40,810 nt of DNA, taken from a virus. Made by a program: the position numbers and the translations under genes. This document shows, in pieces, positions 24,723-40,810 of this stretch (the stretch's first letter is position 1; each line of letters opens with the position of its first letter). The stretch lies in UHGV virus genome UHGV-0096231. The stretch is one strand, 5' to 3'. The notes under the pieces are model-generated. The model saw only the letters and a program-made list of their open reading frames with translations, was not told the origin of the DNA and did not search any database.

Positions 24723-24788
24723 ATGATTGGTGGAGCTTGCGGGAGTTGAAACCGCAGCCACGTCGTATGCAAGAACGTGCTGCGGTTG
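24723..24788. repeat. hairpin repeat, copy C
   Basis: atgattgg ... accgcagccacg-(13 nt loop)-cgtgctgcggt. Same core as copies A and B. Confidence 0.6.
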
Positions 24789-25257: not shown

Positions 25258-26238
25258 ATGAAATTTAAGGACAAGAACCTTAAGGCTCTCGCGGAATGTA
25301 TCATAGGAGATAATAAGGCATTTCTGTATCGTTCAAGCAGTCACATCACTGAATTTTTCCAGGACTGCGGCATGGATGTTACTCATGACGGATCCACTCG
25401 GTGGAAATGGACGGCCCAGAGGCTTGAAGAACTTCTTTATGAGCCACAGTCAAAGCCACATACTTTGCCGGAAAGGTTTGTTCATGTGCTCAGAACTTTA
25501 ATGTTAAAAGAAGATGCAATGGATGACGATCCAGGAAGATTAAAGGCGCTTGAAGAACTGAACAAGCCTTTGATGCGGGAAGGCTATGAGGCATTCTATG
25601 GTGACGATCGCCTTTTGTATATACGCCATACCGATACCAAAACGGTTTCAGTCAGTAATAACCCTCATCGGCCCTTAACGCCTCACGAAGTAGAATGCAG
25701 AAGGTTACTGACCGCGTTTCTTGATACCTGCTCAGAAGATGAGTTAATAGAAGATATTCTCCTTCCTTTATTCCGGCAACTTGGTTTTCACCGGATAACA
25801 GCAGTGGGACATAAAGATAAAGCGCTGGAATACGGGAAAGACATCTGGATGAAGTTCACACTGCCAACTCAGCATGTTCTTTATTTCGGCATTCAGGCAA
25901 AAAAAGGTAAGTTGGATGCGTCCGGTGCCAGCAAATCTACGAATTCAAACGTGGCAGAAATCTTCAACCAGGTACTGATGATGCTTGGCCATGAAATATT
26001 TGACCCAGAAACAAATAGAAAGGTGCTGGTAGATCATGCCTTTATCGTTGCTGGCGGAGAAATTACTAAACAGGCGAGGAACTGGCTGGGCGGGAAACTT
26101 GATGCCAGCAAAAGAAGCCAGATAATATTTATGGACCGGGAAGACATTCTTAATTTATATACTGTAAGTAATGTACCTCTGCCAACAGGTGCTCTCATCT
26201 CTGATGATGCCGTTAAGAACGATGATATTCCTTTCTAA
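25258..26238 (+). CDS. hypothetical protein with PD-(D/E)xK-like nuclease motif (candidate defence gene)
   Basis: 326 aa, AT-rich, GGAG RBS. The segment ELIEDILLPLFRQLGFHRITAVGHKDKALEYGKDIWMKF...HVLYFGIQAKKGK fits an E...D...(Q)xK restriction-endonuclease-fold pattern. Function not established. Confidence 0.5.
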   Translation: MKFKDKNLKALAECIIGDNKAFLYRSSSHITEFFQDCGMDVTHDGSTRWKWTAQRLEELLYEPQSKPHTLPERFVHVLRTLMLKEDAMDDDPGRLKALEELNKPLMREGYEAFYGDDRLLYIRHTDTKTVSVSNNPHRPLTPHEVECRRLLTAFLDTCSEDELIEDILLPLFRQLGFHRITAVGHKDKALEYGKDIWMKFTLPTQHVLYFGIQAKKGKLDASGASKSTNSNVAEIFNQVLMMLGHEIFDPETNRKVLVDHAFIVAGGEITKQARNWLGGKLDASKRSQIIFMDREDILNLYTVSNVPLPTGALISDDAVKNDDIPF

Positions 26239-26733: not shown

Positions 26734-26779
26734 ATTCGTAATGCGAAGGTCGTAGGTTCGACTCCTATTATCGGCACCA
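26734..26779 (+). other. att core: 46 bp identical to the 3' end of tRNA-Thr(CGU) (thrW), not an intact tRNA
   Basis: ATTCGTAATGCGAAGGTCGTAGGTTCGACTCCTATTATCGGCACCA matches thrW from the anticodon loop (CGT) through the T-arm and acceptor 3' end. The 5' half of the tRNA is absent, so this is a duplicated attachment-site core. Confidence 0.8.
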
Positions 26780-26796
26780 TTCAAACATCTCCCCAA

Positions 26797-26880
26797 GTCT
26801 ACTAAAGTCTTTCAAAACCCCTTATAATCCGCGTATTAAAGCCCCGTTCGTCTTTTGACGTCTACTAAAGTCCCTCAAAA
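26797..26880 (+). promoter_or_regulatory. putative integrase arm-type binding sites (direct repeats)
   Basis: gtctactaaagtc occurs twice (26797-26817 and 26860-26880), plus inverted gggggtac/gtaccccc motifs nearby at about 26890-26935. All lie between the att core and the integrase start. Confidence 0.45.
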
Positions 26881-26944
26881 TCTACGGTCAGATGGGGGTA
26901 CTTATGGGGGTATTTGCTGTTCGGTTTAGTGGAGGTACCCCCAA

Positions 26945-28159
26945 GTGAAACTCAATGCCCGTCAAATAGACACAGCCAAGCCAAAAGAGAAGGCTTACAA
27001 GCTGGCCGATGGTGGCGGTTTGTATCTCTTGGTAAAACCTAATGGAGGTAAATACTGGCGACTTAAATATCGTGTAGCTGGTAAAGAGAAGCTATTGGCA
27101 CTAGGTGTGTATCCTGAGGTTACTCTAGCCGATGCTCGGGCAAAACGTGAAGATGCGAAAAGAGGTATCGCTGGTGGTATCGATCCGATGGAAGCGAAAC
27201 GAGAGGAAAAGATTGCCCGGGAAACGCAGTTAAACAACACCTTCAAAGATATTGCCCTTGAGTGGCACAGCAGCAAATTAAAAAAATGGTCTGCTGGTTA
27301 TGCTTCAGACATCCTCGAAGCCTTCAACAAAGATGTGTTCCCTTACATTGGCAAAAAACCAATCGCCGAAATCAAACCACTTGAACTTCTGAATGTGCTG
27401 CGGCGCATCGAGGGGCGCGGTGCTACAGAAAAAGCCAAAAAAGTGAGGCAGCGGTGCGGGGAAGTTTTCCGCTATGCAATAGTCACTGGTCGCGCAGAGT
27501 ATAACCCTGCACCAGACCTTACTAGCGCGATGCAAGGCCATGAATCTAATCATTACCCTTTCCTTACAGCTAAAGAATTACCTGATTTTTTCAAGGCATT
27601 GTCCAGTTACTCAGGAAGCGCATTGGTTGTTATGGCGGCTCGTCTACTGATTATCACCGGCTTGCGGACTGGCGAACTACGTGGCGCATTATGGGATGAA
27701 ATTGATTTCAACAAGGCTATCTGGGAGATACCCGCTTCACGTATGAAAATGCGGCGGCCTCATATTGTGCCATTGTCTGATCAGGCTCTTTCGCTTATTG
27801 GGAAGATTAGAGAAATAACAGGCAATTACCCTCTTATGTTTCCCGGGCGCAATGATCCAAGGAAAACAATGAGTGAGGCCAGCATAAACCAAGTGTTTAA
27901 GCGCATTGGCTACGCTGGACGTGTAACTGGTCATGGGTTCCGGCACACTATGAGCACGATTTTGCATGAGCAGGGCTATAACACCGCGTGGATAGAAACG
28001 CAGCTCGCTCACGTTGATAAGAACTCAATTCGTGGCACATACAACCATGCGCAATATCTGGATGGAAGGCGGGAGATGCTTCAATGGTATGCCGACTATA
28101 TGGATTCTCTCGAGCATGGCGGAAATGTGGTGCATATGGTGTTTGAAAAACACGCATGA
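26945..28159 (+). CDS. tyrosine integrase (P4 family)
   Basis: 404 aa. N-terminus KLNARQIDTAKPKEKAYKLADGGGLYLLVKPNGGKYWRLKYR is the typical P4-type integrase arm-binding domain. C-terminal catalytic region with HGFRHT...Y. GTG start. Immediately downstream of the tRNA-derived att core. Confidence 0.9.
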   Translation: MKLNARQIDTAKPKEKAYKLADGGGLYLLVKPNGGKYWRLKYRVAGKEKLLALGVYPEVTLADARAKREDAKRGIAGGIDPMEAKREEKIARETQLNNTFKDIALEWHSSKLKKWSAGYASDILEAFNKDVFPYIGKKPIAEIKPLELLNVLRRIEGRGATEKAKKVRQRCGEVFRYAIVTGRAEYNPAPDLTSAMQGHESNHYPFLTAKELPDFFKALSSYSGSALVVMAARLLIITGLRTGELRGALWDEIDFNKAIWEIPASRMKMRRPHIVPLSDQALSLIGKIREITGNYPLMFPGRNDPRKTMSEASINQVFKRIGYAGRVTGHGFRHTMSTILHEQGYNTAWIETQLAHVDKNSIRGTYNHAQYLDGRREMLQWYADYMDSLEHGGNVVHMVFEKHA

Positions 28160-28429
28160 AACAACTGGACAAGTATACAGAGGTTTACTAAAGTATAGGG
28201 GAGTAGATTGATAAAAACTCACAGAGGATTGCTATTTAACAGTTAGCCCTGGAGAAGGGCAATCGCTCTTTTATAAACGAAGGTGTATTGAGCCTTCTAC
28301 GTCGCTGACAAAGCGGAATGTTCTTTAAAACTACTGGATGTCACGCCTAATAGCGTGATCCTGCCGAAATGCAGGGTAGCTCTACCCTTGTGGAGCAAAC
28401 AAACCAAAACAATCTGACTATCTTTTATA

Positions 28430-28464
28430 AAAGACCGCAATATGTTTTTCATATTGTGGTCTTT
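28430..28464. promoter_or_regulatory. 15-bp-stem hairpin / palindrome upstream of alpA
   Basis: aaagaccgcaatatg-ttttt-catattgtggtcttt, one mismatch in the stem. Candidate operator or terminator. Confidence 0.35.
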
Positions 28465-28550
28465 GGCGTATTCGACATTTGACGCAAATAAAACTCTCGC
28501 CATTCGTTGCAGGAGGGGGTTATTGCGTCATTAGTACAGGATATTAATAA

Positions 28551-28754
28551 ATGGCTAATTACAATTCATTAATTCGTCTCTCTGAAGTTCAAAGGCGAAC
28601 TGGTTATAGCAAAGCATGGATTTATCGTCTTATTAGTCAGGGGAGGTTCCCTAAACAGGTAAAAATTGGAAGTCGGGCAATTGCTTTTGTTGAGTCTGAA
28701 ATAGATGAATGGATTGAGAAGTGTATATTAGAATCTAGAGACGAGGTGGCCTGA
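28551..28754 (+). CDS. AlpA-family transcriptional regulator / excisionase
   Basis: 67 aa. LIRLSEVQRRTGYSKAWIYRLISQGRFPKQVKIGSRAIAFVESEIDEWI is the canonical AlpA helix-turn-helix pattern. Confidence 0.8.
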   Translation: MANYNSLIRLSEVQRRTGYSKAWIYRLISQGRFPKQVKIGSRAIAFVESEIDEWIEKCILESRDEVA

Positions 28755-29185
28755 TGGAAAAGAAAAACCGCCCATTACAGGCGGCTAATTCAGATATTCG
28801 TGTATCTGATGTTACGCCCCTTACAAAATCCCTTCAAGCACCAAAGCGCACACCGAAAAAGCATCGTGCCAGAGTCTATATGCTGCGTACTGGTATAGAG
28901 GGATGGACAGAAAATGACATTCTTCGCTACTGCCGTCTGTCTTCTGGTCGTAACTATGCAACAGAGTTAGAACGCCAGCTTGGAATCACTCTGGAGCGTA
29001 TCGACGAAAAGAATCCTGATGGTATCGGAACACACCTTCGCTACCGTTTCTCCTGCCGTGGTGATGTTCTGAAAGTGATCACTCATATTAACCATCTTGC
29101 GAACATAAATGATCACAACGGACTTTCTCAGCAGGAAATTGCCGACATTCTGAAACTCTACCCGGACGCGTTTAACGCCGCCTAA
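28754..29185 (+). CDS. hypothetical protein
   Basis: 143 aa, ATGA-coupled to alpA. Confidence 0.5.
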   Translation: MEKKNRPLQAANSDIRVSDVTPLTKSLQAPKRTPKKHRARVYMLRTGIEGWTENDILRYCRLSSGRNYATELERQLGITLERIDEKNPDGIGTHLRYRFSCRGDVLKVITHINHLANINDHNGLSQQEIADILKLYPDAFNAA

Positions 29186-29197
29186 CGGAGACTGAAA

Positions 29198-30031
29198 ATG
29201 AACATCGAAAAAAGCAGATTAATTTCTGAGGCTGCCCCTCATCTGAACGCCTCTCTGGGCACAATTAACGGTAATGAATTTGCCGCAATTGTCCCGGTTA
29301 TTCCTGGTCATATCGGTGGGCGTGAAACCAATATTGTTAGCGCAAAAGCGTTACACAAAGCGTTGGGCGTGGGAAAAGACTTCTCTACATGGATCACTGA
29401 TCGCATCTCTGAATATGACTTCACCATTGGGCACGATTACTCAGTCCATAAAACAATTTCCCCAAATTTGGGGAAAAGCCCGAATGGCGCGGCTTACAGC
29501 AAGATTAAGCAGTCTGGCAGACCCGGCAAAGACTATCTGTTAAGTGTCGGAATGGCGAAAGAACTGGCAATGATCGAACGCAATGATCAGGGTCGCGCTA
29601 TCCGTCGTTATTTCATCCAGTGCGAGGAAGAATTACAGCGTAGCGTGCCTGAAATCGCCGCCCGCTATCGTCGCCAGCTAAAAGCCCGTATTAGTGCCGC
29701 AAACAACTTTAAGCCAATGTGCGATGCGCTGAATATGGCCCGTGCCGAGCAGGGGAAAACGACGCAGCAACACCACTACACAAACGAGAGCAATATGATT
29801 TCTCGTATCGTTCTTGGTGGGCTAACTGCTAAGCAGTGGGCGCGGATAAATGGCTATTCTGGCGAACCTCGCGACCATATGAACGCAGAACAGCTTGAGC
29901 ACCTCTCATATCTCGAAAGCACCAATATCACGTTAATTGATATGGGCATGGAATATGAGCAGCGCAAAGGAGAACTCACCCGCCTGTCGCAACGCTGGCT
30001 CGCCAAGCGTCTGGAGGCGGTCCATGTTTAA
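29198..30031 (+). CDS. phage antirepressor-like protein (AntA / KilAC-type)
   Basis: 277 aa. The segment KDFSTWITDRI ... DYLLSVGMAKELAMIERNDQGRAIRRYFIQCEEEL resembles Ant-type antirepressor domains. Assignment from memory of the motif. Confidence 0.5.
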   Translation: MNIEKSRLISEAAPHLNASLGTINGNEFAAIVPVIPGHIGGRETNIVSAKALHKALGVGKDFSTWITDRISEYDFTIGHDYSVHKTISPNLGKSPNGAAYSKIKQSGRPGKDYLLSVGMAKELAMIERNDQGRAIRRYFIQCEEELQRSVPEIAARYRRQLKARISAANNFKPMCDALNMARAEQGKTTQQHHYTNESNMISRIVLGGLTAKQWARINGYSGEPRDHMNAEQLEHLSYLESTNITLIDMGMEYEQRKGELTRLSQRWLAKRLEAVHV

Positions 30032-30206
30032 GCCGACAGGAACACCACAACCTCAAAAACGCTACAAAGATGCCCACGGAGCACTCGTTACTGTCGAAAG
30101 CGTGTCTCACAACCGAGTGACGTTTTATCGCGACGGGTATCAATCGCCATGCGTACAACCGCTGGCACGTTTCATGAAGGAGTTCGCGGAGGTTAACAAA
30201 TGCTAA
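30027..30206 (+). CDS. small hypothetical protein
   Basis: 59 aa starting at an ATG that overlaps the ant stop (ATGTTTAA). Translational coupling suggests it is a real gene. Confidence 0.35.
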   Translation, partial: FKPTGTPQPQKRYKDAHGALVTVESVSHNRVTFYRDGYQSPCVQPLARFMKEFAEVNKC

Positions 30207-31267
30207 CCGCCCAGAAGAAGATATTTTCACTGGCTGGTATGTCGCCAAAATCCAGCAATATGACAGCAAAGTCAGACATTAATACAGCAGATACAAGCAA
30301 AGTTTATCATTTGCTGGTGGTCGGAACGGATGCCTTAACCATACCAGAAATCTCGGGCGATGATATTAGCATTGAGAAGGTCAGCGGCTGCGCCAGAAAA
30401 TTTCTGGTCGTAGATGATGTCTTCAGCTCGTGTAGTGACTCCACAAAAACATTCGTCCACGCGCGTGACGTTAACGAAATGAGCGCGATGTACTGTGCTT
30501 CTGGTTCTTCCAATAGTGAGTTTTCGGAGTCCATAAAAAAGAGCTTGCCGTTATGCGGCAACACGGTTTATGGTTATAAGGCACCTCATAAAACGGGTGC
30601 CGGGATTGGCGTCCTGGTAAATCGAATGGCGACATATGACGCGCCGAGCGTCTTTTTTTATGTCGTAGGTCTGACTCACCCATTTTTTGGGCGTTGGTGT
30701 ATAATCCAGCGCCTTTGTCAATCAATGGTGGCTCAGGCAGGGGCTTCTTCGGAAGCGCCGGTATCCATTCGAGCCGGTTACGCCAACCCTGTCTGGGCTA
30801 CCACCAGCGAAATTGGCGTTTCCGGTGGTAGCGTTACATGCTATCGAATGGAGGCTGCCACATGCTGGCTACTACCCCTACCCAAAAACCGCAATTTATC
30901 TGGATTATCGCCGCAGTTCGCCGCGATTGCCCGACAATTACCGCCAAAATTCATCATATTGCTGCCGAGTCTGAACGCGATGCTCGCCGTTCTCTGGTGC
31001 GCGATCACATCTGCTTTTTTGCTGGTCGTATCCGCATGGAGGTGGCACATGATTAAAACCTACGATGTGCATATGGATCCCCTCGAACGCACAAGCCAGA
31101 TCATCACACTGACAGAAGTGATTAACGATATTCTGGTGAGCAACTCTCCCTCACGAGACGAAAAACTGAAGGCGTTACTCGCGATATTGGACCTCGCCGT
31201 TCGTGACGTTCATTTCCTGCTGGAAGGTGGACAAATGCCATGCAAAACGGGGGCAACCAATGAATAA
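30200..31267 (+). CDS. hypothetical protein; ORF boundary anomalous (the in-frame read-through to 31267 is probably not one gene)
   Basis: The start is coupled to the upstream stop (ATGCTAA). The frame has no stop until 31267, yet the region 30862-31056 shows better codon usage in another frame. Possible frameshift or fusion. Confidence 0.3.
30862..31056 (+). CDS. small hypothetical protein
   Basis: 64 aa from the ATG at 30862 with GGAGG RBS. Codon usage (ctg, ccg, cgc, atc, acc) is more host-like than the overlapping frame. Confidence 0.45.
   Translation: MLATTPTQKPQFIWIIAAVRRDCPTITAKIHHIAAESERDARRSLVRDHICFFAGRIRMEVAHD
31049..31267 (+). CDS. small hypothetical protein
   Basis: 72 aa. ATG overlaps the previous stop (ATGATTAA). 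Confidence 0.4.
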   Translation: MIKTYDVHMDPLERTSQIITLTEVINDILVSNSPSRDEKLKALLAILDLAVRDVHFLLEGGQMPCKTGATNE

Positions 31268-31454
31268 CTCAATTAATACCCCTCGCCTTACGTCCGCACT
31301 TCAATTAATCGAGCAAGCAGCGGCTGTCCCGGTTGCTGTCAGTCTTTCGGCTGAAGAAATGGACGCTGCTGATGTCGTGGATGCGATTAAAGCGTGCTCA
31401 TCTTTGGTTAACGATGCCCGTGCCGAGCTGGTAATTCTTGGGGGTGAAAAATGA
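31260..31454 (+). CDS. small hypothetical protein
   Basis: 64 aa. ATG overlaps the previous stop (ATGAATAA). Confidence 0.4.
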   Translation: MNNSINTPRLTSALQLIEQAAAVPVAVSLSAEEMDAADVVDAIKACSSLVNDARAELVILGGEK

Positions 31455-31714
31455 ATATCACCTTAATTTATCGTCATCCGTGTGAGCTGGAAATTGAATC
31501 ATTGCTGGGGCGCGAAGAGCCATATCCAGACACATTCACTCCCGCAGATTGCGCGACTGAACGGCTTACCAGAGCGCGCACAGGTCTGGTTCATGTGATG
31601 AATGAGATTGTTCCCTCGGTGGGAGGGGAACAGGCGACAGTAATCAATAGCTGGCTACAAAAAGTTACCTCCCTGATAGATATCGGTTTAATCGATGTGG
31701 AGAGTGCGAAATGA
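31451..31714 (+). CDS. small hypothetical protein
   Basis: 87 aa, ATGA-coupled. Confidence 0.4.
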   Translation: MNITLIYRHPCELEIESLLGREEPYPDTFTPADCATERLTRARTGLVHVMNEIVPSVGGEQATVINSWLQKVTSLIDIGLIDVESAK

Positions 31715-31932
31715 CCAACATCCAGCTCATTGAAGCGCAATGTCGCATCGAACAGGTTCAGACTGTTTTAGGGTTCTGGCTTGAAGGGGCCAGCCCCTGC
31801 AACAGAGACAAGTTAATGATTGGCGCGGTTATGTCACTGCTCAATGGCGTACCAGAAGCTATTCAGGAAGCGGACGAATTGTTGGGCAAATATGAGTTAC
31901 AGAATCATTCAGGCGAGGCGAAACATGAATAA
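31711..31932 (+). CDS. small hypothetical protein
   Basis: 73 aa, ATGA-coupled. Confidence 0.4.
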   Translation: MTNIQLIEAQCRIEQVQTVLGFWLEGASPCNRDKLMIGAVMSLLNGVPEAIQEADELLGKYELQNHSGEAKHE

Positions 31933-32527
31933 TTTCTTAACTTTCCATGCAGAAGCAACGCCTGACGGCGTAAACATCATGTACCGCAGCAACGATGGCA
32001 TGACAGAACGCGTTGATACCGTCTCATATATTGATGCCGTAAATCGTCTGGATGCCGGGGATTATGACGATAAACCAGATGAAGGCATGTTTATACATCT
32101 CGCTATTGCCAGTGGCGGCAACCAGGGATATTTCGATTACACATCACAGCATCACGTGATTATGTGGCGCTGGCTGATAGCAACAGCATTCATCAATGAA
32201 ATGAGAAAGGAAAACGGCACCGTCAGCATTATTGATGACAGTGGCAATCATTCCGTGGTTTCTGTTTATTCCAATGGCATCGTCGCCATGCCGCTGTATC
32301 CAGTAGCAGAGCGCCTCGCTATGGCAAACAACATTGAGGGCGCAATGATCGAGAAATATGGTGTTGATGTCGGAACAAAGAATGCCATCATTTTTTACAG
32401 CAACATGTTCGATGTCGAACAGGGAACACTCACTTCGTTTGGGCGAGAAGTGCTTGCCGATCTTCACAACAGCTTTATTGCCGAACTAAACGAAAACGGC
32501 ATCCCAGAAGCACCAGTGACGCACTAA
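31925..32527 (+). CDS. hypothetical protein
   Basis: About 200 aa from the ATG at 31925, which overlaps the previous stop. Directly precedes the primase gene. Confidence 0.5.
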   Translation: MNNFLTFHAEATPDGVNIMYRSNDGMTERVDTVSYIDAVNRLDAGDYDDKPDEGMFIHLAIASGGNQGYFDYTSQHHVIMWRWLIATAFINEMRKENGTVSIIDDSGNHSVVSVYSNGIVAMPLYPVAERLAMANNIEGAMIEKYGVDVGTKNAIIFYSNMFDVEQGTLTSFGREVLADLHNSFIAELNENGIPEAPVTH

Positions 32528-32539
32528 ACGGGGGCCAGA

Positions 32540-34891
32540 ATGCGAAACATTGATCTTATCCGTCAGGTTATCAGTGCGTCTGAAAACAACTGGCCTCATG
32601 TGCTGGGCTGCCTGAACATAAATGTCCCTGACTCTCCGCGCCGTCATGCTCCCTGCCCTGCATGTGGGGGCAAAGATCGATTCCGGTTCGATGACAACGG
32701 GCGCGGTAGCTTCATCTGTAATCAGTGCGGCGCTGGTGATGGGCTGGATTTAATTAAACGCGTAAATAACTGCGACACAACAGAGGCGGCGCTTCTTGCC
32801 GCTGATGTTCTGGGTATTGATTACCGGACAACGGAAACACCAGAAGCCACCAGCCAGAAACGGGAACAACTGGAAACCGAGCGCCAGCGACGCGAACAGG
32901 AGCGCCTGAAAAGGGCAGAGAAGGACGAACAACAAAGACGGGATACGTTTTCCCGTCAGTTTGATGACATGCGCAGAAAGGCTGTAAACGGCAAATCTGA
33001 TTATCTGGTTGCGAAAGGGGTAGGTGATTTTACATTCCCCGTGTTGCCCGATGGATCTCTGTTGCTGGCGCTGGTGGATAAATCCGGCGCAGTCACAGCA
33101 GCACAGACTATTACCTCACATGGTGAAAAAAGACTCCTGACAGGTTCGGCAAAGCGGGGGGCATATCACGCCATAAACGCACAGAAACGACCTCACAGCA
33201 TCATAATTGCTGAGGGGGTGGCTACCGCCCTGTCGTGCCATTTAATTCGCCCTGACGCAATGACAGTGGCAGCAATCGACGCTGGCAACCTGTTGCCAGT
33301 AGCGGAAGTCATGCGCAGAACATATCCGCAGGCACAAATAATCATTGCCGCAGATAACGATCACCAGCAAGGAGACTCAGAAAGTGGAGGGATCAACACG
33401 GGGAAAGATGCCGCAGAGAGGGCCGCTATTTCCGTAGCTGGCAGGGTGTCTCTGCCACCGACTGACTATAAAGCCGACTGGAACGACTATCACCAACAAC
33501 ACGGGCTGGCGGCAGCCACAGCAGCATTTAAAGATTCGATGTACCAGCCACGGGGGAAAGGGGCGCAGGTGAAAAATCACAAACAGTCAGTCGGGGCGCT
33601 GAATGAGATCAGTTCTGGCGAGGTGTTAAGCGATGATGAAATTGCTGTCCTCGAAGAAATCAACCGGACGTTTACGCATGTCACCATCGGCGGGAAACAC
33701 AAGGTGGTGTCGCTAAAGCCTTCTCAAACCGGCGGTGTATCGCACGTTTTCGAGGATTTATCACAATTTCAGCATTATTTTCATCATAAACCGAGAGTCG
33801 CCAGAAAGCTGGCGGGATCGGCGTGGCTGTCATGGAGTGGGAAGAACTACAAGCCAGGAGGCGTAGGATTTTATCCAGTACCAGACAAATGCCCTGACGA
33901 TGTTTTTAATCTGTATGAGGGGCTGGCACTGGAACCAATTGAAGGAGATTGCACGGTATACCTTAATCACCTGTTGCAGGTTGTCTGTGCCGGTAATGAA
34001 GAGGCATACCAATATCTTATCCAGTGGATGGCGCACATTATCCAAAAGCCTGATGAAAAACCGTCCGTGGCAATCGTGATGAAATCTGTCCCGGGCACAG
34101 GGAAAGGCACAACGGTTAAACCGCTGCTGCAAATACTGGGGCAGTACGCCGCCCACATTAACGGGGCGGGACATATTTCAGGGCGCTTCAATTCAATACT
34201 TGCTAACAAGCTACTGGTATTTGCTGACGAAGTGACGATCCACAAGCCGTCTGAAGCTGACAGACTTAAAGCGATTATTAGCGAACCGACGTTTAACCTT
34301 GAGCGCAAGGGAATTGATGCTGAACCAATGCCGAATTTTGCCCGGTTGATATTTGCCAGTAACAGCACACAGGTATTACAGGCAGGGATAAGAGAGCGTC
34401 GCTATCTCGTGCTTGAGCCATCTCCTGAAAAAGCACAGAGCCGGGAGTATTTTGATCGGCTGTACAGTTGGCTTAATGATGGCGGTGCCGCAAAGTTGCT
34501 TTGGCATCTTAAAGGGGTGGATCTCTCAGGTTTTGACCCTCAACGAGCGCCACAGACCGATGCCTTACGTGAAGAAATCTTGCTGGGGCTGTCTGGCGTT
34601 GAATTGTTTCTTTATGGCGAGCTAATCAATGAACCTCCGTTTAATGGCGAAGTCCGTTTGTTTGCAAAGGATATGGTTAGTCGGTTTGTAGCGTGGTCGC
34701 TTGAGCGTGGGGAAAAGCTTAAAGAACCAGCTGCCAGATCACTACTGGGTAAATCACTTGCACAAATGGGGCTGGTGAAGCATGGAAGACCAGACCGAGG
34801 GAATGGCGTGTTCTACGAACTACCAGAGGTCGGAGTTCTACAGGCTGCGTTTGCCCGTCTGATCGGTATGGGGGGTTATGATGTTTTTTAA
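32540..34891 (+). CDS. P4 alpha-like primase-helicase (zinc-binding / toprim primase + D5-type helicase)
   Basis: 783 aa. N-terminal Cys cluster CPACGGKDRFRF...FICNQCGAGDG (zinc-binding primase domain), a toprim-like middle region (IIIAEGVATALS, AADND), and a C-terminal P-loop-like VPGTGKGTT. Confidence 0.85.
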   Translation: MRNIDLIRQVISASENNWPHVLGCLNINVPDSPRRHAPCPACGGKDRFRFDDNGRGSFICNQCGAGDGLDLIKRVNNCDTTEAALLAADVLGIDYRTTETPEATSQKREQLETERQRREQERLKRAEKDEQQRRDTFSRQFDDMRRKAVNGKSDYLVAKGVGDFTFPVLPDGSLLLALVDKSGAVTAAQTITSHGEKRLLTGSAKRGAYHAINAQKRPHSIIIAEGVATALSCHLIRPDAMTVAAIDAGNLLPVAEVMRRTYPQAQIIIAADNDHQQGDSESGGINTGKDAAERAAISVAGRVSLPPTDYKADWNDYHQQHGLAAATAAFKDSMYQPRGKGAQVKNHKQSVGALNEISSGEVLSDDEIAVLEEINRTFTHVTIGGKHKVVSLKPSQTGGVSHVFEDLSQFQHYFHHKPRVARKLAGSAWLSWSGKNYKPGGVGFYPVPDKCPDDVFNLYEGLALEPIEGDCTVYLNHLLQVVCAGNEEAYQYLIQWMAHIIQKPDEKPSVAIVMKSVPGTGKGTTVKPLLQILGQYAAHINGAGHISGRFNSILANKLLVFADEVTIHKPSEADRLKAIISEPTFNLERKGIDAEPMPNFARLIFASNSTQVLQAGIRERRYLVLEPSPEKAQSREYFDRLYSWLNDGGAAKLLWHLKGVDLSGFDPQRAPQTDALREEILLGLSGVELFLYGELINEPPFNGEVRLFAKDMVSRFVAWSLERGEKLKEPAARSLLGKSLAQMGLVKHGRPDRGNGVFYELPEVGVLQAAFARLIGMGGYDVF

Positions 34892-34920
34892 TATAGTCTT
34901 TTTACAAGAAGATCGTTTTT

Positions 34921-35026
34921 ACCTGTACCACCTATACCACTTTGCTAATTCAGCATTAAAAACAATGTGTTATAGTGGTACAGGTCAATATCTTACCTAT
35001 ACCAGACCTGTACCACCTATACCATT
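34921..35026. repeat. iteron cluster 1 (ACCTGTACC / GGTACAGGT family)
   Basis: cctgtaccacctatacca occurs twice as a direct repeat (34922-34939 and 35007-35024), with an inverted copy tggtacaggtc between. Immediately downstream of the primase gene. Confidence 0.6.
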
Positions 35027-35067
35027 AACAAACGCATTTCTTCTGGCTGGCTGAGAGGGAACAACCA

Positions 35068-35298
35068 ATGATGAGCGCACCATTTTACAAAGTGCGCCAG
35101 TTAGCTTCTTCCTCTGGCTGGCAGCTACGGTTTGAGGGGCGTTCAGACTGGCTACCCATTGCGGCATGGGCGAATGTTGAAATGTGTATTGACGGCGATA
35201 CCGTTGAAATCATTATTCCCTGCGTGGCAAGTCGGGACGGCTGTATAGAGCCAACAGATATGGCAGCAGAAATCAGAGAGGTAAAACATGAGCAATAA
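35068..35298 (+). CDS. hypothetical protein
   Basis: 76-aa ORF between the two iteron clusters. Confidence 0.4.
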   Translation: MMSAPFYKVRQLASSSGWQLRFEGRSDWLPIAAWANVEMCIDGDTVEIIIPCVASRDGCIEPTDMAAEIREVKHEQ

Positions 35299-36025
35299 CT
35301 ATTGCATACCGCAGGGAATGACCAGAACGGAGCGCGAAGAATTAAAAAGTTTCGCTACACAGTGCGGGAATGCTGGCGACATCCAAAGTCTGGAACGCAC
35401 TTTAATTATGATTGCGCACTGGATGCGTCAGGGGCAAAGGGTTTCATTTACTGAATATGCCAGCCAGTGGACAGAGGCACAGCGCGAACGGAGCGACGGT
35501 AATCACTCAACACCCGAAATGGCGAAGCAATGGCCTTTCAGTGGTAAACGCTGTATCAGTCCCGGTGGTTCAGATTATTACCCTGCTGGTGTGGGAGATG
35601 AGCCATGTTGTGACGAGACTGAAATCCGCCACGCAGTGACAGTAATTACCGCTGAATACCCACAATTTAACCTTGACGGACTGGCGCTCCACAACCGGAA
35701 TGCGGACTGGGAAAACCCGCTTGATAACCCGTCATTTATCGTATCGGCGAAAAGCTGCCTGAGATGGATCAGAGACAACGGGATGAGTAATGCCCAGATT
35801 GAGAGCTTCCCGCAGGATAACCCCACATCTGACACGTTGAAGCATGAAGTGGAGCGATATAACCAGATAAACCACCAGCACAGTGATCACCCGCACTATA
35901 TCCCCAACGGAGCATTTATTGCGGCGATGGTGGCAAGCGGCTACAAGGTTAAGCCAGCGGGAAGAATGAACGCATTTTTCAATATTTCAAAAAAGGGATT
36001 ATGTGCTGCTATGGGTAAAAATTAA
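35288..36025 (+). CDS. hypothetical protein
   Basis: 245-aa ORF overlapping the previous gene. Confidence 0.5.
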   Translation: MSNNYCIPQGMTRTEREELKSFATQCGNAGDIQSLERTLIMIAHWMRQGQRVSFTEYASQWTEAQRERSDGNHSTPEMAKQWPFSGKRCISPGGSDYYPAGVGDEPCCDETEIRHAVTVITAEYPQFNLDGLALHNRNADWENPLDNPSFIVSAKSCLRWIRDNGMSNAQIESFPQDNPTSDTLKHEVERYNQINHQHSDHPHYIPNGAFIAAMVASGYKVKPAGRMNAFFNISKKGLCAAMGKN

Positions 36026-36030
36026 ATAAA

Positions 36031-36134
36031 TGGTACAGGTCTGTACAGGTGGGGAGAGGTCATTTTTACCCACCTGTACCACCTGCAGGCCGCGTCACAC
36101 AAGGGTTTGTGACATGGTGGTACAGGTGGTACAG
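36031..36134. repeat. iteron cluster 2 (GGTACAGGT family) with central palindrome
   Basis: tggtacaggtctgtacaggtgg, cacctgtaccacctg and tggtggtacaggtggtacag are copies of the same motif as cluster 1. A gtcacac...tgtgac palindrome lies at 36094-36113. Confidence 0.6.
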
Positions 36135-36499
36135 CAAAAACAGCGATTTTCTTTATAAGGTATGTTTTGCTCATCTGGCAGACGGAGGTATTCGCTGCGG
36201 TTTGGCACATAGCCCAGAACAGCAAAGAGTTTTACGAGACTTTTGTAAAATCCAGTGTACAAGGGCGTGACGTTTTTGAAGGAGAGACCTACGAAATTTT
36301 CGTAGTTCAAAAAATAGCCTCTGAGATGTTGTTATGCCTGTTCAGCAAACCATCCGCATAGCTGATCGCGAATCAAATTACCAATGGAGCCAGAAGCAAG
36401 GGCAGAACTGGAAAGCGCCTGCCGTGAAGAGTAATGCGACATCGTAAATATAGTTTTTAGAGTCCATAAAAAACCTGTCAAAACCTGACATACAGAACG

Positions 36500-36533
36500 A
36501 TGCCACCAGCTACTGAGCGGTGGCATTTTTTTG
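36500..36533 (+). terminator. Rho-independent terminator
   Basis: atgccacc-agctactgagc-ggtggcat followed by TTTTTTT. Confidence 0.6.
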
Positions 36534-36627
36534 TGCTATTTGTTTCATATTTTGCAATCACAATGATGAATATTGCGTTTTATGAAACTATAATGACTGT
36601 TGTTTTATACAGTTCTAAGGGGGCGTT

Positions 36628-36786
36628 ATGGCTATTTCAGTAAAGCCGGTATTGATAAGTGAGAAGCAAATGGAAGCGATAAAGAAAATTCAGGAGGAGC
36701 AGCGTAAAAAATCAGAGGTAGGAGTTGCGCCAACGATCCACGAAATTGCTCGGGGATTAATGGATAAGGCGCTGGCTTACACTTTA
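36628..36786 (+). CDS. small hypothetical protein (52 aa), first gene of the unknown operon
   Basis: ATG with AAGGGGG RBS. Encodes MAISVKPVLISEKQMEAIKKIQEEQRKKSEVGVAPTIHEIARGLMDKALAYL. Not in the ORF track because it is under 60 aa. Possibly a small DNA-binding or regulatory protein. Confidence 0.35.
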
Positions 36787-36793
36787 ACTGGAC

Positions 36794-38155
36794 GTGGGTA
36801 AATCAATGGCTACGTGGAAACAGGGTATTAATTCTGGTGGTTTTCTGGCTGGCATTGGTGCGCAAAATGAGAATGCGCCAAAGGCAAGCGACATTAACGC
36901 AACGCTTGGTCTGATCCGCGAAAACAATGAACTGGCTCGATCAGGTGCAAATAACGTTGCTCTGACAGGCCTTCGTGGTCTGGCTGGAGTTGCTGACATT
37001 TATAAGCAGGAACAGCAACAGAAAGCGATTAGTGCGTTCAATAAGGTTCATGCTGATGCATGGGCTTCTGGTGATCCATCGGGACTATTTAAGTTTGCCC
37101 AGGAAAATCCAGCGTTTGTTGCACAGGCACAACAGGCATTTTCCGGTCTTAATGAGCAGCAACGCAACGATATGGGCGATTTAGCCATGAGGGCTAACGT
37201 CGCTCTTTCTCAGGGACCGGAAGCCTACAGTAAATTCATTACTGACAACAAGGACAGGTTAAATCGCGTTGGTGCTAATGCTGACTGGATGATTCAGACA
37301 GGTATCCAGAATCCAGAGCAGCTATCACACATGCTGACTACTATGTCTCTCGGTGCGCTTGGACCAGAAAAGGCGTTTGCTGTTCAGGATAAGATGGTTG
37401 GTCGCCAGCAGGAGCAGCAAAGAATTAACGAAACCATTCGCAATAATGACATGACGAATGCGAGGGCTATTAGGGGTCAGGATCTTTCCTATAAGGCTCA
37501 AATGGCAAGACTGAATCACGACAAGTATGTGTTTAAGCAGTCACAGGCGGCCCTTGAAAGAGCAGGACAACTTCAGGATATGGATGTTTTGTCTCTTAAC
37601 TCACAGATAGCAGCGACGGGAATTGATCCGCTAACCGGTAAAGCTGCAACGTCAGCCAGAATGTCTCAGGCTAAGAGATGGCTTGATGGCAACAATAATT
37701 ACAACAATGCGTTAATTACTGGTGAGCGAGGGATAGAGAAAATTGATTCTTTGCTTGGTAAGAAGGAGCTTGAAGGTATTGGTCGCTTCGAAGGAAGAAA
37801 TATAGATGGCTTCACAAGTGCTGAAGGGCTTGCAAACCGTAATGCGATAGAAGAATTAAAGTCGGGTGCGTTTGTCCAGAACGTGCAGACTATGCGAGGT
37901 ATGGGTAGCCTCTCCAATGCTGAAGGCCAAAAACTGGAAAACCTGATCGCGAAACTCGATATAACACAGCCTGAAGAGGTCGTCAGAAAACAGTTATCTG
38001 AAATCCGATCGCAATATTCTGTATTTCAAAAGGTTGCAGCAAGGGAGGCTGAATCAATGGGATATAGTTCATCAGGTTATGACACATATGTTAGTGAGCG
38101 AAAATCAGGAAGCGACAGCAATAAGTCCGGTTTCTCGTCTTTATGGGGTGATTAA
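36794..38155 (+). CDS. hypothetical protein (453 aa), Gln/Ala/Asn-rich, predicted coiled-coil
   Basis: Long ORF with no recognisable catalytic motif. The start may be the GTG at the track coordinate or the ATG four codons later. The stop overlaps the next start (TAATG). Confidence 0.6.
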
Positions 38156-40260
38156 TGGCTAAAGCATGGAAAGATGTTATCGCTTCTCCACAGTATCAGG
38201 CGTTAGCACTAGAACAAAAAGCGCAGGCTCAGGAGCAATACTTCAATGAAGTCGTGGCCCCGCAAGCCGGAGAAAGTGTAGAGCAGGCTAAGCAGGCTTT
38301 TTATGCTGCCTATCCACTACCATCAACGAATGAAATAGACCGATCCCAATCAGCAACTCAAAATATTCAACATACATCATCTGATAATTCTCTTGCGTCA
38401 GGGTATGCAAAGTTAGCTACTCAGCAAAGAGAGGGGCTTGAGCGTTCAGCAGAACAGGGAGCCAGTCTTGGGGCTGCGATGCGCGATGCTATAACAGGCG
38501 AAAGCCGAATGACTCCAGAGATGGAGAGACTGCAAAATGTCGCCTCTGCCCCAGAATTGAACTCACTAAGCATGGATGCCCTAAAGGCTGGATGGTCTCA
38601 ACTTTTCGGCTCTGACGCGTCTCAGGAAAAGATTCTTCAGGGAATGGGGGCGACATTAAGGCAGGATGAGAAGGGGAATACTATCGTTTCTCTGCCATCA
38701 GGTGATTATGCCCTAAACAAGCCGGGTTTATCACCGCAAGACCTGACTTCGTTTCTTGCTAATGCGTTGGCGTTTACACCAGCGGGCAGGGCTGGAACGG
38801 TGCTTGGTGCCATAGGAAAATCAGCAGCTACAGATTTAGCACTACAGGGAGCCACCAGCCTTGCTGGTGGAGAAGATATTGATCCGTTACAAACGGTAAT
38901 TTCTGCTGGCATTGGTGGTATTGGTAAGGGGCTGGAAAATACAGCGAGTGCGGTTTCGAGGGCTGTTCGTGGTGATATGTCGCCTGAAGCAAAGGCTGCT
39001 GTCGACTTTGCATCGGAAAGAAATCTGCCGTTAATGACCAGTGACATGCTGAAAGATAAAACCTTTATGCAGAGTCAGGCTCAGACATTAGGCGAAAGAG
39101 TTCCTTTTTTTGGAACCGGTAAGAACCGACTGAATCAACAACAAGCACGAGAAAATTTAGTCAGAACATTTAGCGATGGTCTGGGGGGAATTTCAGATAA
39201 ACAGCTTTATGAATCTGCGACTAAAGGGCAGCAAAAATTCATTGAGGCAGCAGGAAAGCGATATAACCGCATAATTGACGCTATGGGGGATACCCCTGTC
39301 GATCTCTCAAACACGGTAAAAGCTATCGACAATCAGATTGCCGTGTTAAGCCGACCGGGCAAATCTCAGGATAGAGCCGCGGTAAAAGTCTTGCAGCAAT
39401 TTAAAGACGATATCACCAGCGGACCCAATGACCTGCGTCTGGCGAGAGAAAACAGAACTGACCTTCGAAAGCGGTTCATGAATTCAAACGAGACTGTTGA
39501 TAAAGACACGCTCCAGAAAGCCAGCGATATTGTCTACAAGGCATATACAGCGGATATGAAAAAAGCAGTATCCCAAAAACTAGGCTCAGAAGAAGCTACC
39601 AATATGTCTAGGGTTGATCGCTCATGGGCTAGATTCAATGACATGATGGGAAGAACGCGCGTTCAAAAGGCAATAGCCAGCGGCAAGGCCACGCCTGAGG
39701 ATGTAACAAAACTCGTTTTTAGCCAAAACCCATCAGAACGTTCTCAGCTTTACAGGCTTCTGGATGACAATGGTAGGCAAAACGCACGAGCCGCCATAGT
39801 TCAGAATGCTGTAGATAAGGCGACTGATCCGTCTGGAAATATCAGTGTTGAGAAGTTTATTAATGCGTTACACCGGAACAGAAAGCAATCCGCAACGTTC
39901 TTTAAGGGCGTGCACGGAAAGGAACTGGACGGCATTATTAAATACCTCAACGATACCAGACAGGCGGCAAAGGTTGACGGTCAGAAATTAAACAGCCAGA
40001 AACTTTATGGCCTGCTGGTTGGTGGAGGCGCTATAAATGCGGCAGTTCTGGCGGGGATGCTGAAAACGGCTGCGTTTGTTGTTCCTGCTGCAGGTGCCGT
40101 AGGCGGAGCAGCGAAGGCATACGAAAGCCCTGTTATACGAAATGCCTTGTTACGTCTGGCAAATACGCCAAAAGGTAGCACAGCATATGACAGAGCGATC
40201 AGTACGGTCACACAATCACTGACCACAGCAGCACAAGCATCGCAAAAGGAAGCTCAATAA
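38155..40260 (+). CDS. hypothetical protein (701 aa) with C-terminal hydrophobic helical hairpin
   Basis: Long, largely helical Q/A-rich protein. The C-terminal LYGLLVGGGAINAAVLAGMLKTAAFVVPAAGAVGGAAKAY (about nt 40003-40125) is a glycine-zipper-like membrane hairpin. No P-loop or nuclease motif seen. Confidence 0.6.
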   Translation: MAKAWKDVIASPQYQALALEQKAQAQEQYFNEVVAPQAGESVEQAKQAFYAAYPLPSTNEIDRSQSATQNIQHTSSDNSLASGYAKLATQQREGLERSAEQGASLGAAMRDAITGESRMTPEMERLQNVASAPELNSLSMDALKAGWSQLFGSDASQEKILQGMGATLRQDEKGNTIVSLPSGDYALNKPGLSPQDLTSFLANALAFTPAGRAGTVLGAIGKSAATDLALQGATSLAGGEDIDPLQTVISAGIGGIGKGLENTASAVSRAVRGDMSPEAKAAVDFASERNLPLMTSDMLKDKTFMQSQAQTLGERVPFFGTGKNRLNQQQARENLVRTFSDGLGGISDKQLYESATKGQQKFIEAAGKRYNRIIDAMGDTPVDLSNTVKAIDNQIAVLSRPGKSQDRAAVKVLQQFKDDITSGPNDLRLARENRTDLRKRFMNSNETVDKDTLQKASDIVYKAYTADMKKAVSQKLGSEEATNMSRVDRSWARFNDMMGRTRVQKAIASGKATPEDVTKLVFSQNPSERSQLYRLLDDNGRQNARAAIVQNAVDKATDPSGNISVEKFINALHRNRKQSATFFKGVHGKELDGIIKYLNDTRQAAKVDGQKLNSQKLYGLLVGGGAINAAVLAGMLKTAAFVVPAAGAVGGAAKAYESPVIRNALLRLANTPKGSTAYDRAISTVTQSLTTAAQASQKEAQ

Positions 40261-40322
40261 CAGATGGCCATGGATGGTTGGTTATAATAGTAATTAGTAT
40301 TTTTTTCAAATAGTTATGAACA

Positions 40323-40730
40323 TTAACACTTGCCTTTAACATTGCCGACAAATGAGCCTGTAAATGAGCCTATATCAGATCGACTAATTGTTCGTGTATG
40401 GATCACTTTTCCGTCATTTGAGATTGCCCATGTGACAAGCGTCAGTTGACCATCTCGATAGCTTCTTCCCATCATGGCATTCGGAGATAGCGGGTAATAA
40501 TCAATACCTCCACCTATACCATCTTTTGCCAAGATAAGATCCGCCTTCTCTTTACTTATTACCAAATGAAAGGTATCTGGTATAGATGATAACTTATAGT
40601 TATACCCATCTGAACTTGAGGCTTCTTGTCCTTTCAGATCACCAATAATCCAGCATTCAGCGTTCGCTCCAAAAGAAGCAAATAATAAACCGGAGACAAC
40701 CAATCGCTTCAATTGATTCACACCAACCCT
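40323..40730 (-). CDS. secreted (signal-peptide) hypothetical protein, convergent with the 701-aa gene
   Basis: Start placed at a GTG with AGGGAGGG RBS, giving MNQLKRLVVSGLLFASFGANA-E..., a typical Sec signal peptide with an ANA cleavage motif. About 135 aa. The ORF track gives a longer version, 40323..40790. Confidence 0.5.
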   Translation of the reverse strand, partial: RVGVNQLKRLVVSGLLFASFGANAECWIIGDLKGQEASSSDGYNYKLSSIPDTFHLVISKEKADLILAKDGIGGGIDYYPLSPNAMMGRSYRDGQLTLVTWAISNDGKVIHTRTISRSDIGSFTGSFVGNVKGKC

Positions 40731-40810
40731 CCCTTTAGCGTTGTTTAGAATGGCAATCATCATATATCCAAGACATGGCATTTGGTACATAGCTTGGGTC
40801 GGGATTTCAA

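Follow-up and report, generated by a model that had tools for sequence, protein, structure and literature searches.

A probable phage satellite of the EcCIMP1 family carries P22-type ejection-protein genes behind a conserved leader

The virus genome UHGV-0096231 was analyzed as one strand of 40,810 nucleotides (nt), referred to here as the window, and this report deals with the element that occupies its positions 26734-40810. The element contained an integrase, AlpA, an Ant-like protein, a run of tiny coupled genes and a primase with iterons, all of which had been read in an initial annotation from the sequence alone and were recovered at the same places with Pfam, PHROG and a repeat count (Table 1). 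None of its open reading frames (ORFs) matched terminase, portal or capsid families in the Pfam and PHROG searches, which also bore out that annotation, but 3.5 kb of virion genes had been overlooked. The last 3.5 kb of the element consisted of two intact genes for the DNA-injection proteins gp20 and gp16 of the P22 type, and all the other ORFs of the element were intact as well. Taken as a whole, the element is best explained, with a high degree of confidence, as a mosaic member of the EcCIMP1 family, that is, a Gram-negative phage-inducible chromosomal island (PICI) and phage satellite at the 3' end of thrW. The P22-type ejection genes suggest a P22-like phage as its likely helper.

Table 1. 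Features of the element and segments compared with EcCIMP1 (window positions; aa, amino acids)
Feature	Positions	Strand	Evidence or remark
attL, 3' 46 nt of tRNA-Thr (thrW)	26734-26779	+	core TCCTATTATC at 26763-26772; prophage/island junction
P4-type tyrosine integrase, 404 aa	26945-28159	+	Pfam Arm-DNA-bind_3, Phage_int_M, Phage_integrase, E 1e-26 to 1e-34
Small divergent ORF, counterpart of EcCIMP1_002	28297-28503	-	98% identical in EcCIMP1 (L003)
AlpA, 67 aa	28551-28754	+	PF05930, E 7e-20; 100% identical to EcCIMP1 alpA
143-aa protein, translationally coupled to alpA	28754-29185	+	99% identical in EcCIMP1; 63-78% across the family
AntA/Bro-network protein, 277 aa	29198-30031	+	PF08346, E 1e-21; phrog_5817, E 1e-37
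DUF4222 small protein	30024-30206	+	PF13973, E 2e-24; annotated in L001 and L003; 98% identical to EcCIMP1
'Ash' ORF, 355 aa	30200-31267	+	Pfam Ash domain at aa 124-232; 81% aa identity to EcCIMP1
Four translationally coupled genes (overlapping stops/starts)	31260-31454, 31451-31714, 31711-31932, 31925-32527	+	annotated in L001; 86-99% identical to EcCIMP1
Primase-helicase, 783 aa	32540-34891	+	Zn ribbon, Toprim, DUF5906 (Pfam, PHROGs)
Iteron cluster 1	34921-35024	both orientations	six ACCTRTACCA copies just after the primase stop; putative ori or crr
o76	35068-35298	+	variable slot between primase and ORF57
h245	35288-36025	+	variable slot between primase and ORF57
Iteron cluster 2	36031-36127		three exact ACCTGTACCA copies and partial copies
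Conserved non-coding leader	36226-36627	+	93% nt identical to EcCIMP1
ORF57, 57 aa, head of the cassette operon and family marker	36628-36801	+	92% identical to EcCIMP1
P22 gp20-type ejection protein, 449 aa, HK620/CUS-3 allele	36806-38155	+	PF16928 Inj_translocase, E 8e-109; phrog_2534, E 1e-175
P22 gp16-type ejection protein, 701 aa, intact	38155-40260	+	phrog_770, E 2e-159
Secreted 155-aa moron-type protein, where P22 has sieA	40323-40790	-	signal-peptide-like N-terminus
Segment: int to phrog_1515 gene	26734-32525		95% nt identity to EcCIMP1
Segment: primase N-terminus	32540-33561		87.5% nt identity to EcCIMP1
Segment: helicase domain, iterons, o76, h245	33562-36225		no nt identity to EcCIMP1
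Segment: leader and ORF57	36226-36776		93% nt identity to EcCIMP1
Segment: ejection-protein cassette	36777-40810		no nt identity to EcCIMP1

The left boundary placed at 26734 by the initial annotation proved well chosen, as it falls on the tRNA-Thr fragment. This fragment matched exactly the annotated 3' end of tRNA-Thr in three loci, MSB1_8G (L001), L002 and EcCIMP1 (L003), and its core TCCTATTATC is the att core published for EcCIMP1 (PMC11773190). No whole tRNA was found in the window by ARAGORN; the att copy is reduced here to 46 nt of the tRNA, since the side of the true tRNA is taken up by a prophage. At its left end the element thus showed the thrW integration site and the core of the EcCIMP1 family, and the right core was seen in relatives only (L001 and L003). 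Judging from the complete relatives, a full size of about 19 kb is expected for this Escherichia coli chromosomal island, and the window ends about 4.7 kb before the expected right att copy.

EcCIMP1 is a 19,963-bp island located at the tRNA-Thr between proA and yagU of E. coli MP1 (Pick, Stadel & Raivio, ISME J 2025, PMC11773190; GenBank OR778291). It circularises in Kapi1 lysogens only, to a greater extent after mitomycin C treatment, and both alpA and int are needed (PMC11773190). The transcription of alpA is induced by the helper, and AlpA is the helper-induced master activator required for excision and transfer (PMC11773190). Kapi1, a P22-like Lederbergvirus, transduces marked EcCIMP1 but not a chromosomal marker, although only about 5e3 particles per ml are obtained; the yield of Kapi1 is not reduced, and the superinfection immunity of Kapi1 lysogens to Kapi1 is raised (PMC11773190). 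The PerC-like protein of the island represses LEE (PMC11773190). Since the left 5.8 kb of the element was 95% identical at the nt level to this helper-mobilised island, the earlier view of a probable satellite rather than an autonomous phage was well supported.

The complete relatives measured 18,770 bp (MSB1_8G) and 19,963 bp (EcCIMP1) between the att cores, with a family range of about 18.8-20 kb. After gp16, the relatives carried a minus-strand moron, followed in MSB1_8G and several others by an Abi family gene, and then PerC-like and pRiA4b-ORF3-like genes. No head, packaging, terminase or lysis genes were found in the complete relatives up to the second att core, where they end. The structural and packaging genes immediately beyond 40810, which according to the initial annotation would have turned the element into a complete prophage, were thus present in no relative.

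The cassette itself was formed by genes 20 and 16 only of the P22 late operon, gp14, gp7 and all head, tail and terminase genes being absent from the element. Gene 20 was 98% (aa) and 97% (nt) identical to that of the E. coli podoviruses HK620 and CUS-3, with a dN of 0.007 and a dS of 0.092 against HK620. The homology to HK620 began 10 nt upstream of the gene 20 ATG and stopped 106 nt into gene 16 (1.47 kb, 97%); when the whole element was compared with phages by megablast, gene 20 and these first 106 nt of gene 16 were the only near-identical stretch. Beyond this point gene 16 was a different allele, the product of which was 68% identical to gp16 of phage N7 and 95-99.5% identical to gp16 of other islands, and its C-terminus could be aligned with that of P22 gp16 through a shared motif.

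Of 14 island copies of the window-type gp16 ORF, 13 extended over all 701 aa, including three called pseudogenes by PGAP. In these three (L059 13857-15962; L062 and L064 5856-7961) gp16 is described by PGAP/RefSeq as incomplete with a missing C-terminus, but the frames were intact over 701 codons. The dN/dS of the window copy against eight other island copies, compared pairwise, was 0.13-0.16 at a dS of 0.13-0.19. These intact ORFs and low dN/dS values indicated, by sequence comparison, that the cassette genes are maintained as coding sequences, yet their alleles circulate between islands and phages. Among 5426 complete E. coli genomes, 418 carried the gp16 allele, and four matches were sampled, three of them island-borne and one located in a true P22-like prophage. 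The possibility that the window-type gp16 was exclusive to islands was rejected, since a P22-like prophage of E. coli HS13-1 has a frameshifted copy with 93% nt identity. A clustering of the variable residues of island gp16 at the positions of SieA escape was also looked for. One variable patch, at aa 601-650, aligned with P22 G532, but two other patches were equally variable, and the alignment was given no weight as evidence.

The moron-type protein encoded on the opposite strand behind gene 16 was 29-34% identical to the products of P22-like and lambdoid phage genes, including one located downstream of the ejection genes in Emek and Sf6 gene 38, which lies beside the repressor. No Pfam or PADLOC match was obtained for it, and from its sequence it is a candidate for an envelope or exclusion function.

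Upstream of the cassette, the leader and ORF57 formed another stretch of high identity between the element and EcCIMP1. An intrinsic terminator was detected by a terminator scan at 36503-36532 and preceded the promoter both in the window and in EcCIMP1. The scan found no canonical sigma-70 promoter before ORF57; the -10 element and palindromes described here came from the alignment of 12 loci of the family (window 36540-36625), which showed TATAAT throughout the family and no -35 element; the palindrome TTTCAT-N5-TGCAAT / ATTGCA-N5-ATGAAA overlaps this -10 element, and CTGTAT-N4-ATACAG comes after it. In the window this promoter/operator region contained TATAAT at 36590-36595, again without a -35 element, and the palindromes TTTCAT..TGCAAT/ATTGCG..ATGAAA and CTGTTG..ATACAG. 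The promoter and its palindromes were kept across all cassette types in the family-wide alignment. Because of this conservation and of the terminator that lies ahead, the expression of the cassette is probably controlled by the island: the arrangement is that of a probable activator-type promoter, governed by island factors rather than by helper-specific late activators.

Within the leader, about 300 nt (36226-36532) were non-coding and 93% identical to EcCIMP1 despite unrelated flanks, and a small RNA or a leader acting in antitermination may be encoded here; no Rfam match was obtained over 36226-36627. A short segment of 39 nt (36276-36314) was 95% identical to the ant1 region of the P1-like phage RCS47. 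A blastn search of the 615-nt leader against 50,697 phage records, aimed at phage DNA such as a late promoter of the helper or a pac site, returned only this P1-like ant match. As for ORF57, homologues were found in Enterobacterales only. Its AlphaFold model, of moderate confidence (mean pLDDT 74.6), consisted of an extended N-terminus and helices at residues 12-28 and 37-53, and no match was obtained in Pfam, or in the PDB with Foldseek at E <= 0.001. ORF57 is probably a small DNA-binding regulator, for which a ribbon-helix-helix fold would be a guess.

ORF57 was then used as a marker to survey the family, and 55 loci were compared: four from species-representative genomes, 49 from IMG/VR, the window and MSB1_8G. 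In nearly all of them an EcCIMP1-type primase (60-100% identity) preceded ORF57 by 0.6-8 kb and ORF57 stood at the head of a co-oriented operon, and in 55 of 55 it was followed by genome-delivery proteins. P22-type ejection proteins, either 14-7-20-16 or 20-16 alone, were present in 19 loci. Another 12 loci carried internal virion proteins of podoviruses other than P22, among them a lytic-transglycosylase protein of 840-900 aa (phrog_418, 1044/992, 3003 and 684), with Stenotrophomonas BUCT708 and E. coli TL-2011b as the best phage relatives. A myovirus tape-measure protein with a transglycosylase domain, together with tail/baseplate-hub proteins (phrog_2276, 817, 349, 196 and 3443), was found in eight loci, the tape-measure protein being 86% identical to that of Klebsiella temperate phages. 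The remaining loci had a hub-type set (seven), a transglycosylase/tape-measure-like protein (five), a siphovirus tape-measure protein (three; two of full length, 857-1046 aa, and one 210-aa N-terminal fragment) or a hub set with a small terminase (one). No capsid, portal or terminase was found among the sampled large unknown genes of the surveyed loci.

The cassette alleles were shuffled between islands regardless of the primase and integrase type. In Escherichia sp. MOD1-EC7003, a window-type gp16 (99.5%) was located behind gp14 and gp7 of the EcCIMP1 type and a third type of gp20. In E. coli USMARC-50748 (L059, 2558-18822), ORF57 with an HK620-type gp20 and a window-type gp16 was found at the yicC/dinD site, with a different integrase and a DUF927 primase; therefore, modules are freely exchanged between islands at different sites. 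The ORF57 region was present in 503 of 5426 complete E. coli genomes (about 9%). Additionally, a small-terminase-like gene was observed after tape-measure/hub cassettes, in L056 (12509-13111; phrog_51, E 3e-25) and, with weaker matches restricted to a helix-turn-helix, in L046 (12019-12633) and L049 (11969-12490). This sequence evidence suggests a redirection of packaging in the tape-measure/hub branches; none of the P22-type islands showed a gene of this kind.

The rest of the element followed EcCIMP1 closely up to the primase. The integrase was 99.5% identical (aa) to that of EcCIMP1 and 42.5% to P4 Int. The small divergent ORF behind it gave no Pfam match, and the 'UvrB-like' label of its counterpart EcCIMP1_002 is a misannotation, UvrB activity being absent (Pick et al., PMC11773190). 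The 143-aa protein, annotated as 'PM1773 family' in one relative, gave no Pfam, PHROG or PADLOC match. AntA was 98.6% identical (aa) to its EcCIMP1 counterpart, and the last of the four coupled genes (31925-32527) corresponded to phrog_1515 (E 3e-47).

An RNA immunity region was located inside the Ash ORF. It comprised an isrK-like RNA at 30581-30658 (Rfam RF01394, 67.1 bits, gathering score 50) and a C4/CI antisense RNA at 30721-30808 (Rfam RF01695, 79.5 bits, gathering score 45), and the Pfam Phage_ASH domain coincided exactly with both. At the nt level, the P4 cI region matched the element in two stretches, one of 162 nt (71% identity) and one of 38 nt (92%). The P4 'cI ORF' aligned to the 30200-31267 region in two different frames. 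Since the domain equals the RNAs exactly and two frames are involved, this region may be conserved as RNA, and its annotation as an Ash protein may be spurious.

The primase contained a mosaic boundary, at 33561. Its N-terminal Zn-ribbon/Toprim part (residues 1-351) was 85% identical (aa, tblastn) to that of EcCIMP1, whereas the C-terminal domain was DUF5906 in the window and DUF927 in EcCIMP1; residues 5-314 of P4 alpha were 34% identical to the window primase. The ACCTRTACCA iteron occurred ten times in the window, against 0.08 copies expected, and nine of these copies lay within the two clusters. EcCIMP1, which has the other helicase type, carries different repeats at the position of cluster 2. 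The genes o76 and h245, bracketed by the two clusters, gave no Pfam or PADLOC match and were absent from EcCIMP1.

The interval between the primase and ORF57 varied across the family from 0.6 to about 8 kb. In relatives (L039, L041, L045 and L057) this slot contained an AAA ATPase with an S8 subtilase protease, a nucleoside deoxyribosyltransferase-like protein, HATPase_c_3 and T5orf172/MUG113 proteins, a cargo that by its annotation looks like defence genes. In the element itself, PADLOC found no known defence system among ten island proteins, and only a weak PDC-S22 match at the C-terminus of AntA was obtained. The proposal of the initial annotation that the cargo serves helper interference or host defence was therefore left without support; the most conspicuous cargo is gp20-gp16, and the Abi gene of the relatives would lie beyond the end of the window.

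The window from position 1 to about 26700 corresponded to the late half of a separate prophage of the myovirus type, which combines an HK97-type head with a contractile tail. Large terminase, capsid, sheath and tape-measure genes were among its late genes, the terminase, capsid and tail genes lying within 1-19000. The right arm of this prophage (19989-26238) carried several cargo genes. A Pin/Gin-type invertase (19989-20579) and a GIY-YIG protein resembling LEM-3 (20640-21464, minus strand) were followed by an EcoRII-type restriction-modification pair, formed by a Dcm-type C5 methyltransferase (21775-23250) and an EcoRII-type endonuclease (23285-24499, minus strand), and by a 326-aa ORF of unknown function (25258-26238). 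In strains MSB1_8G and MP1 the island occurred by itself next to an intact tRNA-Thr, and strain CRE1493 had the same prophage with a different island behind it. From these arrangements and the att fragment that lies between the two, it follows that the prophage and the island are independent elements in tandem at thrW.

A mechanism for the element can be proposed from EcCIMP1 and from the genetics of P22. Induction of a P22-like (Lederbergvirus) helper would raise the expression of alpA, and AlpA and the integrase would then excise and circularise the island, as shown for EcCIMP1. The primase-helicase would replicate the circle from the two ACCTRTACCA clusters under the control of a P4-type CI/C4 antisense-RNA immunity. 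The island DNA would be packaged by the headful mechanism into helper capsids, a step for which EcCIMP1 offers only its low-frequency specific transduction; because about two island copies fit a head of P22 size, no capsid-size genes would be needed. The gp20-gp16 operon would supply the island with its own matched ejection pair, which would assemble into helper procapsids, so that island particles would inject through an island-type rather than a helper-type conduit, with entry into SieA-protected helper lysogens as the possible payoff.

The prophage exclusion protein SieA acts on the gp20/gp16 conduit to block DNA entry, and both proteins must change for a phage to escape it (Leavitt et al. 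2024, PMC10883804). Moreover, gp16 and gp20 must match, mismatched combinations giving non-functional virions, while gp7 is interchangeable, and P22 virions accept the E-proteins of HK620, CUS-3, Sf6 and L in place of their own (PMC10883804). By analogy, the minimal gp20+gp16 cassette fits the matched-pair genetics of P22. The EcCIMP1 proteins were 83% (gp14), 57% (gp7), 26% (gp20) and 24% (gp16) identical to those of Kapi1; given the low values for gp20 and gp16, EcCIMP1 brings a conduit pair unlike that of its helper. The preferred reading, if a rather doubtful one, is that the island pair would enter helper procapsids and change the entry properties of the island-carrying particles, most plausibly allowing entry into Sie-protected helper lysogens. 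Similarly tentative is the broader proposal, drawn from the comparison of loci, that PICI-like satellites across Enterobacterales keep an expression slot (promoter and ORF57), repeatedly capture helper delivery proteins and re-equip virions for injection, for example past exclusion of the SieA, Ltp or gp15 type.

Pick et al. referred to the products of the genes behind the primase as 'DNA transfer/DUF2824' proteins and suggested that they 'may be involved in packaging' (PMC11773190). In a literature search for satellites with ejection or tape-measure genes, only this remark was retrieved, the papers on helper-embedded PICIs and on Tai defence dealing with unrelated mechanisms; the main text of the EcCIMP1 host transcriptome paper contained no gene-level expression data for the cassette. 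The comparative pattern, a conserved slot that appears to be filled with helper-type delivery proteins, adds to what has been published and was read from the annotation of partly redundant loci.

Several points weigh against this interpretation of the element and its cassette. The IMG/VR loci are partly redundant, and the PHROG labels on the non-P22 cassettes are family annotations only. Neither a pac site nor a small terminase was found in the P22-type islands. The same gp16 type occurs in a true P22-like prophage, and part of the signal of purifying selection could have been acquired in phages. Helper-dependent excision and transduction are known for EcCIMP1 with Kapi1, but the element is known here from its sequence; the C-terminus of the primase, the iterons and the cassette differ from those of EcCIMP1, and helper specificity and mobility are not to be assumed. 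The family may be poorly mobile, given the approximately 5e3 transducing particles per ml of EcCIMP1, and the right end and the helper lie outside the window.

Other explanations were weighed against the same data. The cassette could serve the resident cell or interfere with the helper, poisoning incompatible conduits or occupying the inner-membrane entry site, which would account for the superinfection immunity that EcCIMP1 adds to Kapi1 lysogens and would agree with the lack of a known defence system, with the non-functionality of mismatched gp16/gp20 pairs and with an island pair of a type other than the helper's. Nevertheless, Kapi1 titres are not lowered by EcCIMP1 after induction, which speaks against the poisoning of progeny, and a promoter without a -35 element behind a terminator suggests induced rather than constitutive expression, so that a resident role is on balance somewhat unlikely. 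Plasmids carrying cloned P22 DNA are packaged through cointegrates from pac, and the phage genes of the island could act in the same way as a patch of homology: recombination between island and helper through the 1.47 kb of gene 20 (97%) would give cointegrates that are packaged by the headful mechanism from the helper pac. That stretch of gene 20 and 106 nt of gene 16 is indeed the sole near-identity to sequenced phages, no pac site or small terminase was found, and EcCIMP1 is transferred specifically but rarely. However, the homology between EcCIMP1 and its proven helper Kapi1 is limited to 590 nt (81% identity), the cassette ORFs are intact under purifying selection, and the capture in 55 loci of delivery proteins only, never of capsid, portal or terminase, is not what a patch would predict; this explanation was considered unlikely.

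An immobile, decaying hybrid, in which a P4/PICI-like island was fused to a remnant of a P22-like prophage and has no present satellite function, would explain why only two of the four ejection-module genes are there, without gp14 and gp7, and would agree with the pseudogene flags put by PGAP on gp16 in some relatives and with the filing of the family as 'type C' PICI under de Sousa's scheme. It is made quite improbable by the intact window ORFs (the flags are wrong, gp16 having its full 701 aa, and dN/dS is 0.15), by an architecture that recurs with different integrases, primases and cassettes, and by the mobility shown in experiments for the near-identical relative EcCIMP1. The P4-type integrase, primase N-terminus, CI/C4 RNA and two iteron clusters could also be those of a genuine P4-like satellite that uses a P2-like helper, but gene content has already refuted this, leaving it a very slight probability. 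In the element and two complete relatives, tblastn (E <= 0.01) gave no match to Sid, Delta, Psu, Epsilon, ORF106 or ORF151 of P4 (NC_001609), among them the psu/sid/delta-like genes that the initial annotation had suggested looking for beyond the window. Furthermore, no match to Gop, Beta or cII and no similarity to a P2-type cos beyond chance 10-mers were obtained, the virion genes are of the P22 podovirus type, and the closest relative has been shown to use a Lederbergvirus as its helper. Finally, co-orientation, direct adjacency and the presence of terminase, capsid and tail genes at 1-19000 could make the region the right arm of the upstream prophage within one composite phage. This is scarcely credible given the att copy in between, the island alone in MSB1_8G and MP1, the other island behind the prophage of CRE1493 and the contractile tail of the prophage as opposed to a podovirus-type cassette. 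The element is, then, a mosaic addition to a known family whose satellite nature has been demonstrated, and is neither a P4-like satellite nor a defective prophage.

This element and hundreds of similar ones in E. coli, filed as 'incomplete prophage' or 'P4-like', are really EcCIMP1-type satellites, whose likely P22-like helpers can be read from the cassette. Their identity as satellites is a rediscovery, and the cassette pattern leads to a testable hypothesis on a new point of attack in satellite-helper biology. Known satellites act on capsid size, packaging specificity or late transcription, and a module for the injection step was not described in the literature searched. Injection piracy, if true, would act on injection rather than on capsid size or packaging, and would offer an experimental handle on the interaction between the gp16/gp20 conduit and Sie proteins. 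If the cassette alters which cells the particles enter, the spread among lysogens of islands with PerC-like regulators, Abi and hotspot defence cargo would be affected.

Compared with P4, part of the 'P4-family' assignment made in the initial annotation stood. The element has an integrase of the same family, an alpha-like primase N-terminus, a CI/C4 RNA region (71-92% nt identity over 200 nt) and two iteron clusters comparable to ori and crr, and like P4 it has no capsid genes of its own. The assignment failed on sid, delta, psu, epsilon and cos, all absent. The two also differ in size (11.6 kb for P4, about 19 kb here), in the podovirus ejection genes of the element and in the helper, which for the closest relative is P22-like and not P2-like. 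In terms of gene content, therefore, the element shares the integration, immunity and replication backbone of P4 but lacks every gene that defines the exploitation of P2 by P4.

The co-oriented integrase, AlpA and primase within about 10-20 kb that characterize PICIs (as cited from Fillol-Salom and de Sousa) were all found. Classical PICIs such as EcCICFT073 and EcCIEDL933 (Fillol-Salom et al.) share with the element the int-alpA-primase order, AlpA as a helper-induced master regulator, a PerC-like gene and the lack of lysis and capsid genes, a likeness taken from Pick et al. (PMC11773190) and not from an alignment made here. PICIs are described as free of phage structural and lysis genes, whereas the element has two virion (ejection) genes, though no capsid, portal, terminase or lysis genes. 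Their post-primase module for redirecting packaging (Rpp, TerS, capsid morphogenesis) has no counterpart in the window element or its P22-type relatives, in which delivery proteins are found instead. In the scheme of de Sousa the EcCIMP1 family is only an uncertain 'type C' PICI, according to Pick et al. (PMC11773190).

With the P22-like phages (HK620, CUS-3, N7 and P22) the element shares the order of genes 20 and 16 followed by an opposite-strand moron, its gp20 being closest to HK620 (98%) and its gp16 to N7 (68%). The complete late operon of a P22-like prophage (3, 2, 1, 8, 5, 4, 10, 26, 14, 7, 20, 16, 9) is not present, and the module follows the primase, cargo and ORF57 instead of genes 26-14-7.

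EcCIMP1 differs from the element in a gp14-gp7-gp20-gp16 cassette after ORF57, with a lytic transglycosylase domain in gp16, where the window element has gp20 and gp16 only; the two gp20 proteins are 27% identical, and the window gp16 has no detectable match there. It also has a DUF927 primase and other iterons, lacks o76 and h245, and lies directly at the tRNA, whereas the window element lies behind a prophage. Nevertheless, both occupy the thrW site with the same att core and a near-identical module of int, alpA, the 143-aa gene, AntA, DUF4222, Ash/CI RNA and small ORFs. In both, the primase is followed by the leader, ORF57, a P22-type ejection operon (of different alleles) and an opposite-strand moron, and then, as seen in the full-length relatives of the window element, by the PerC and pRiA4b-like genes.

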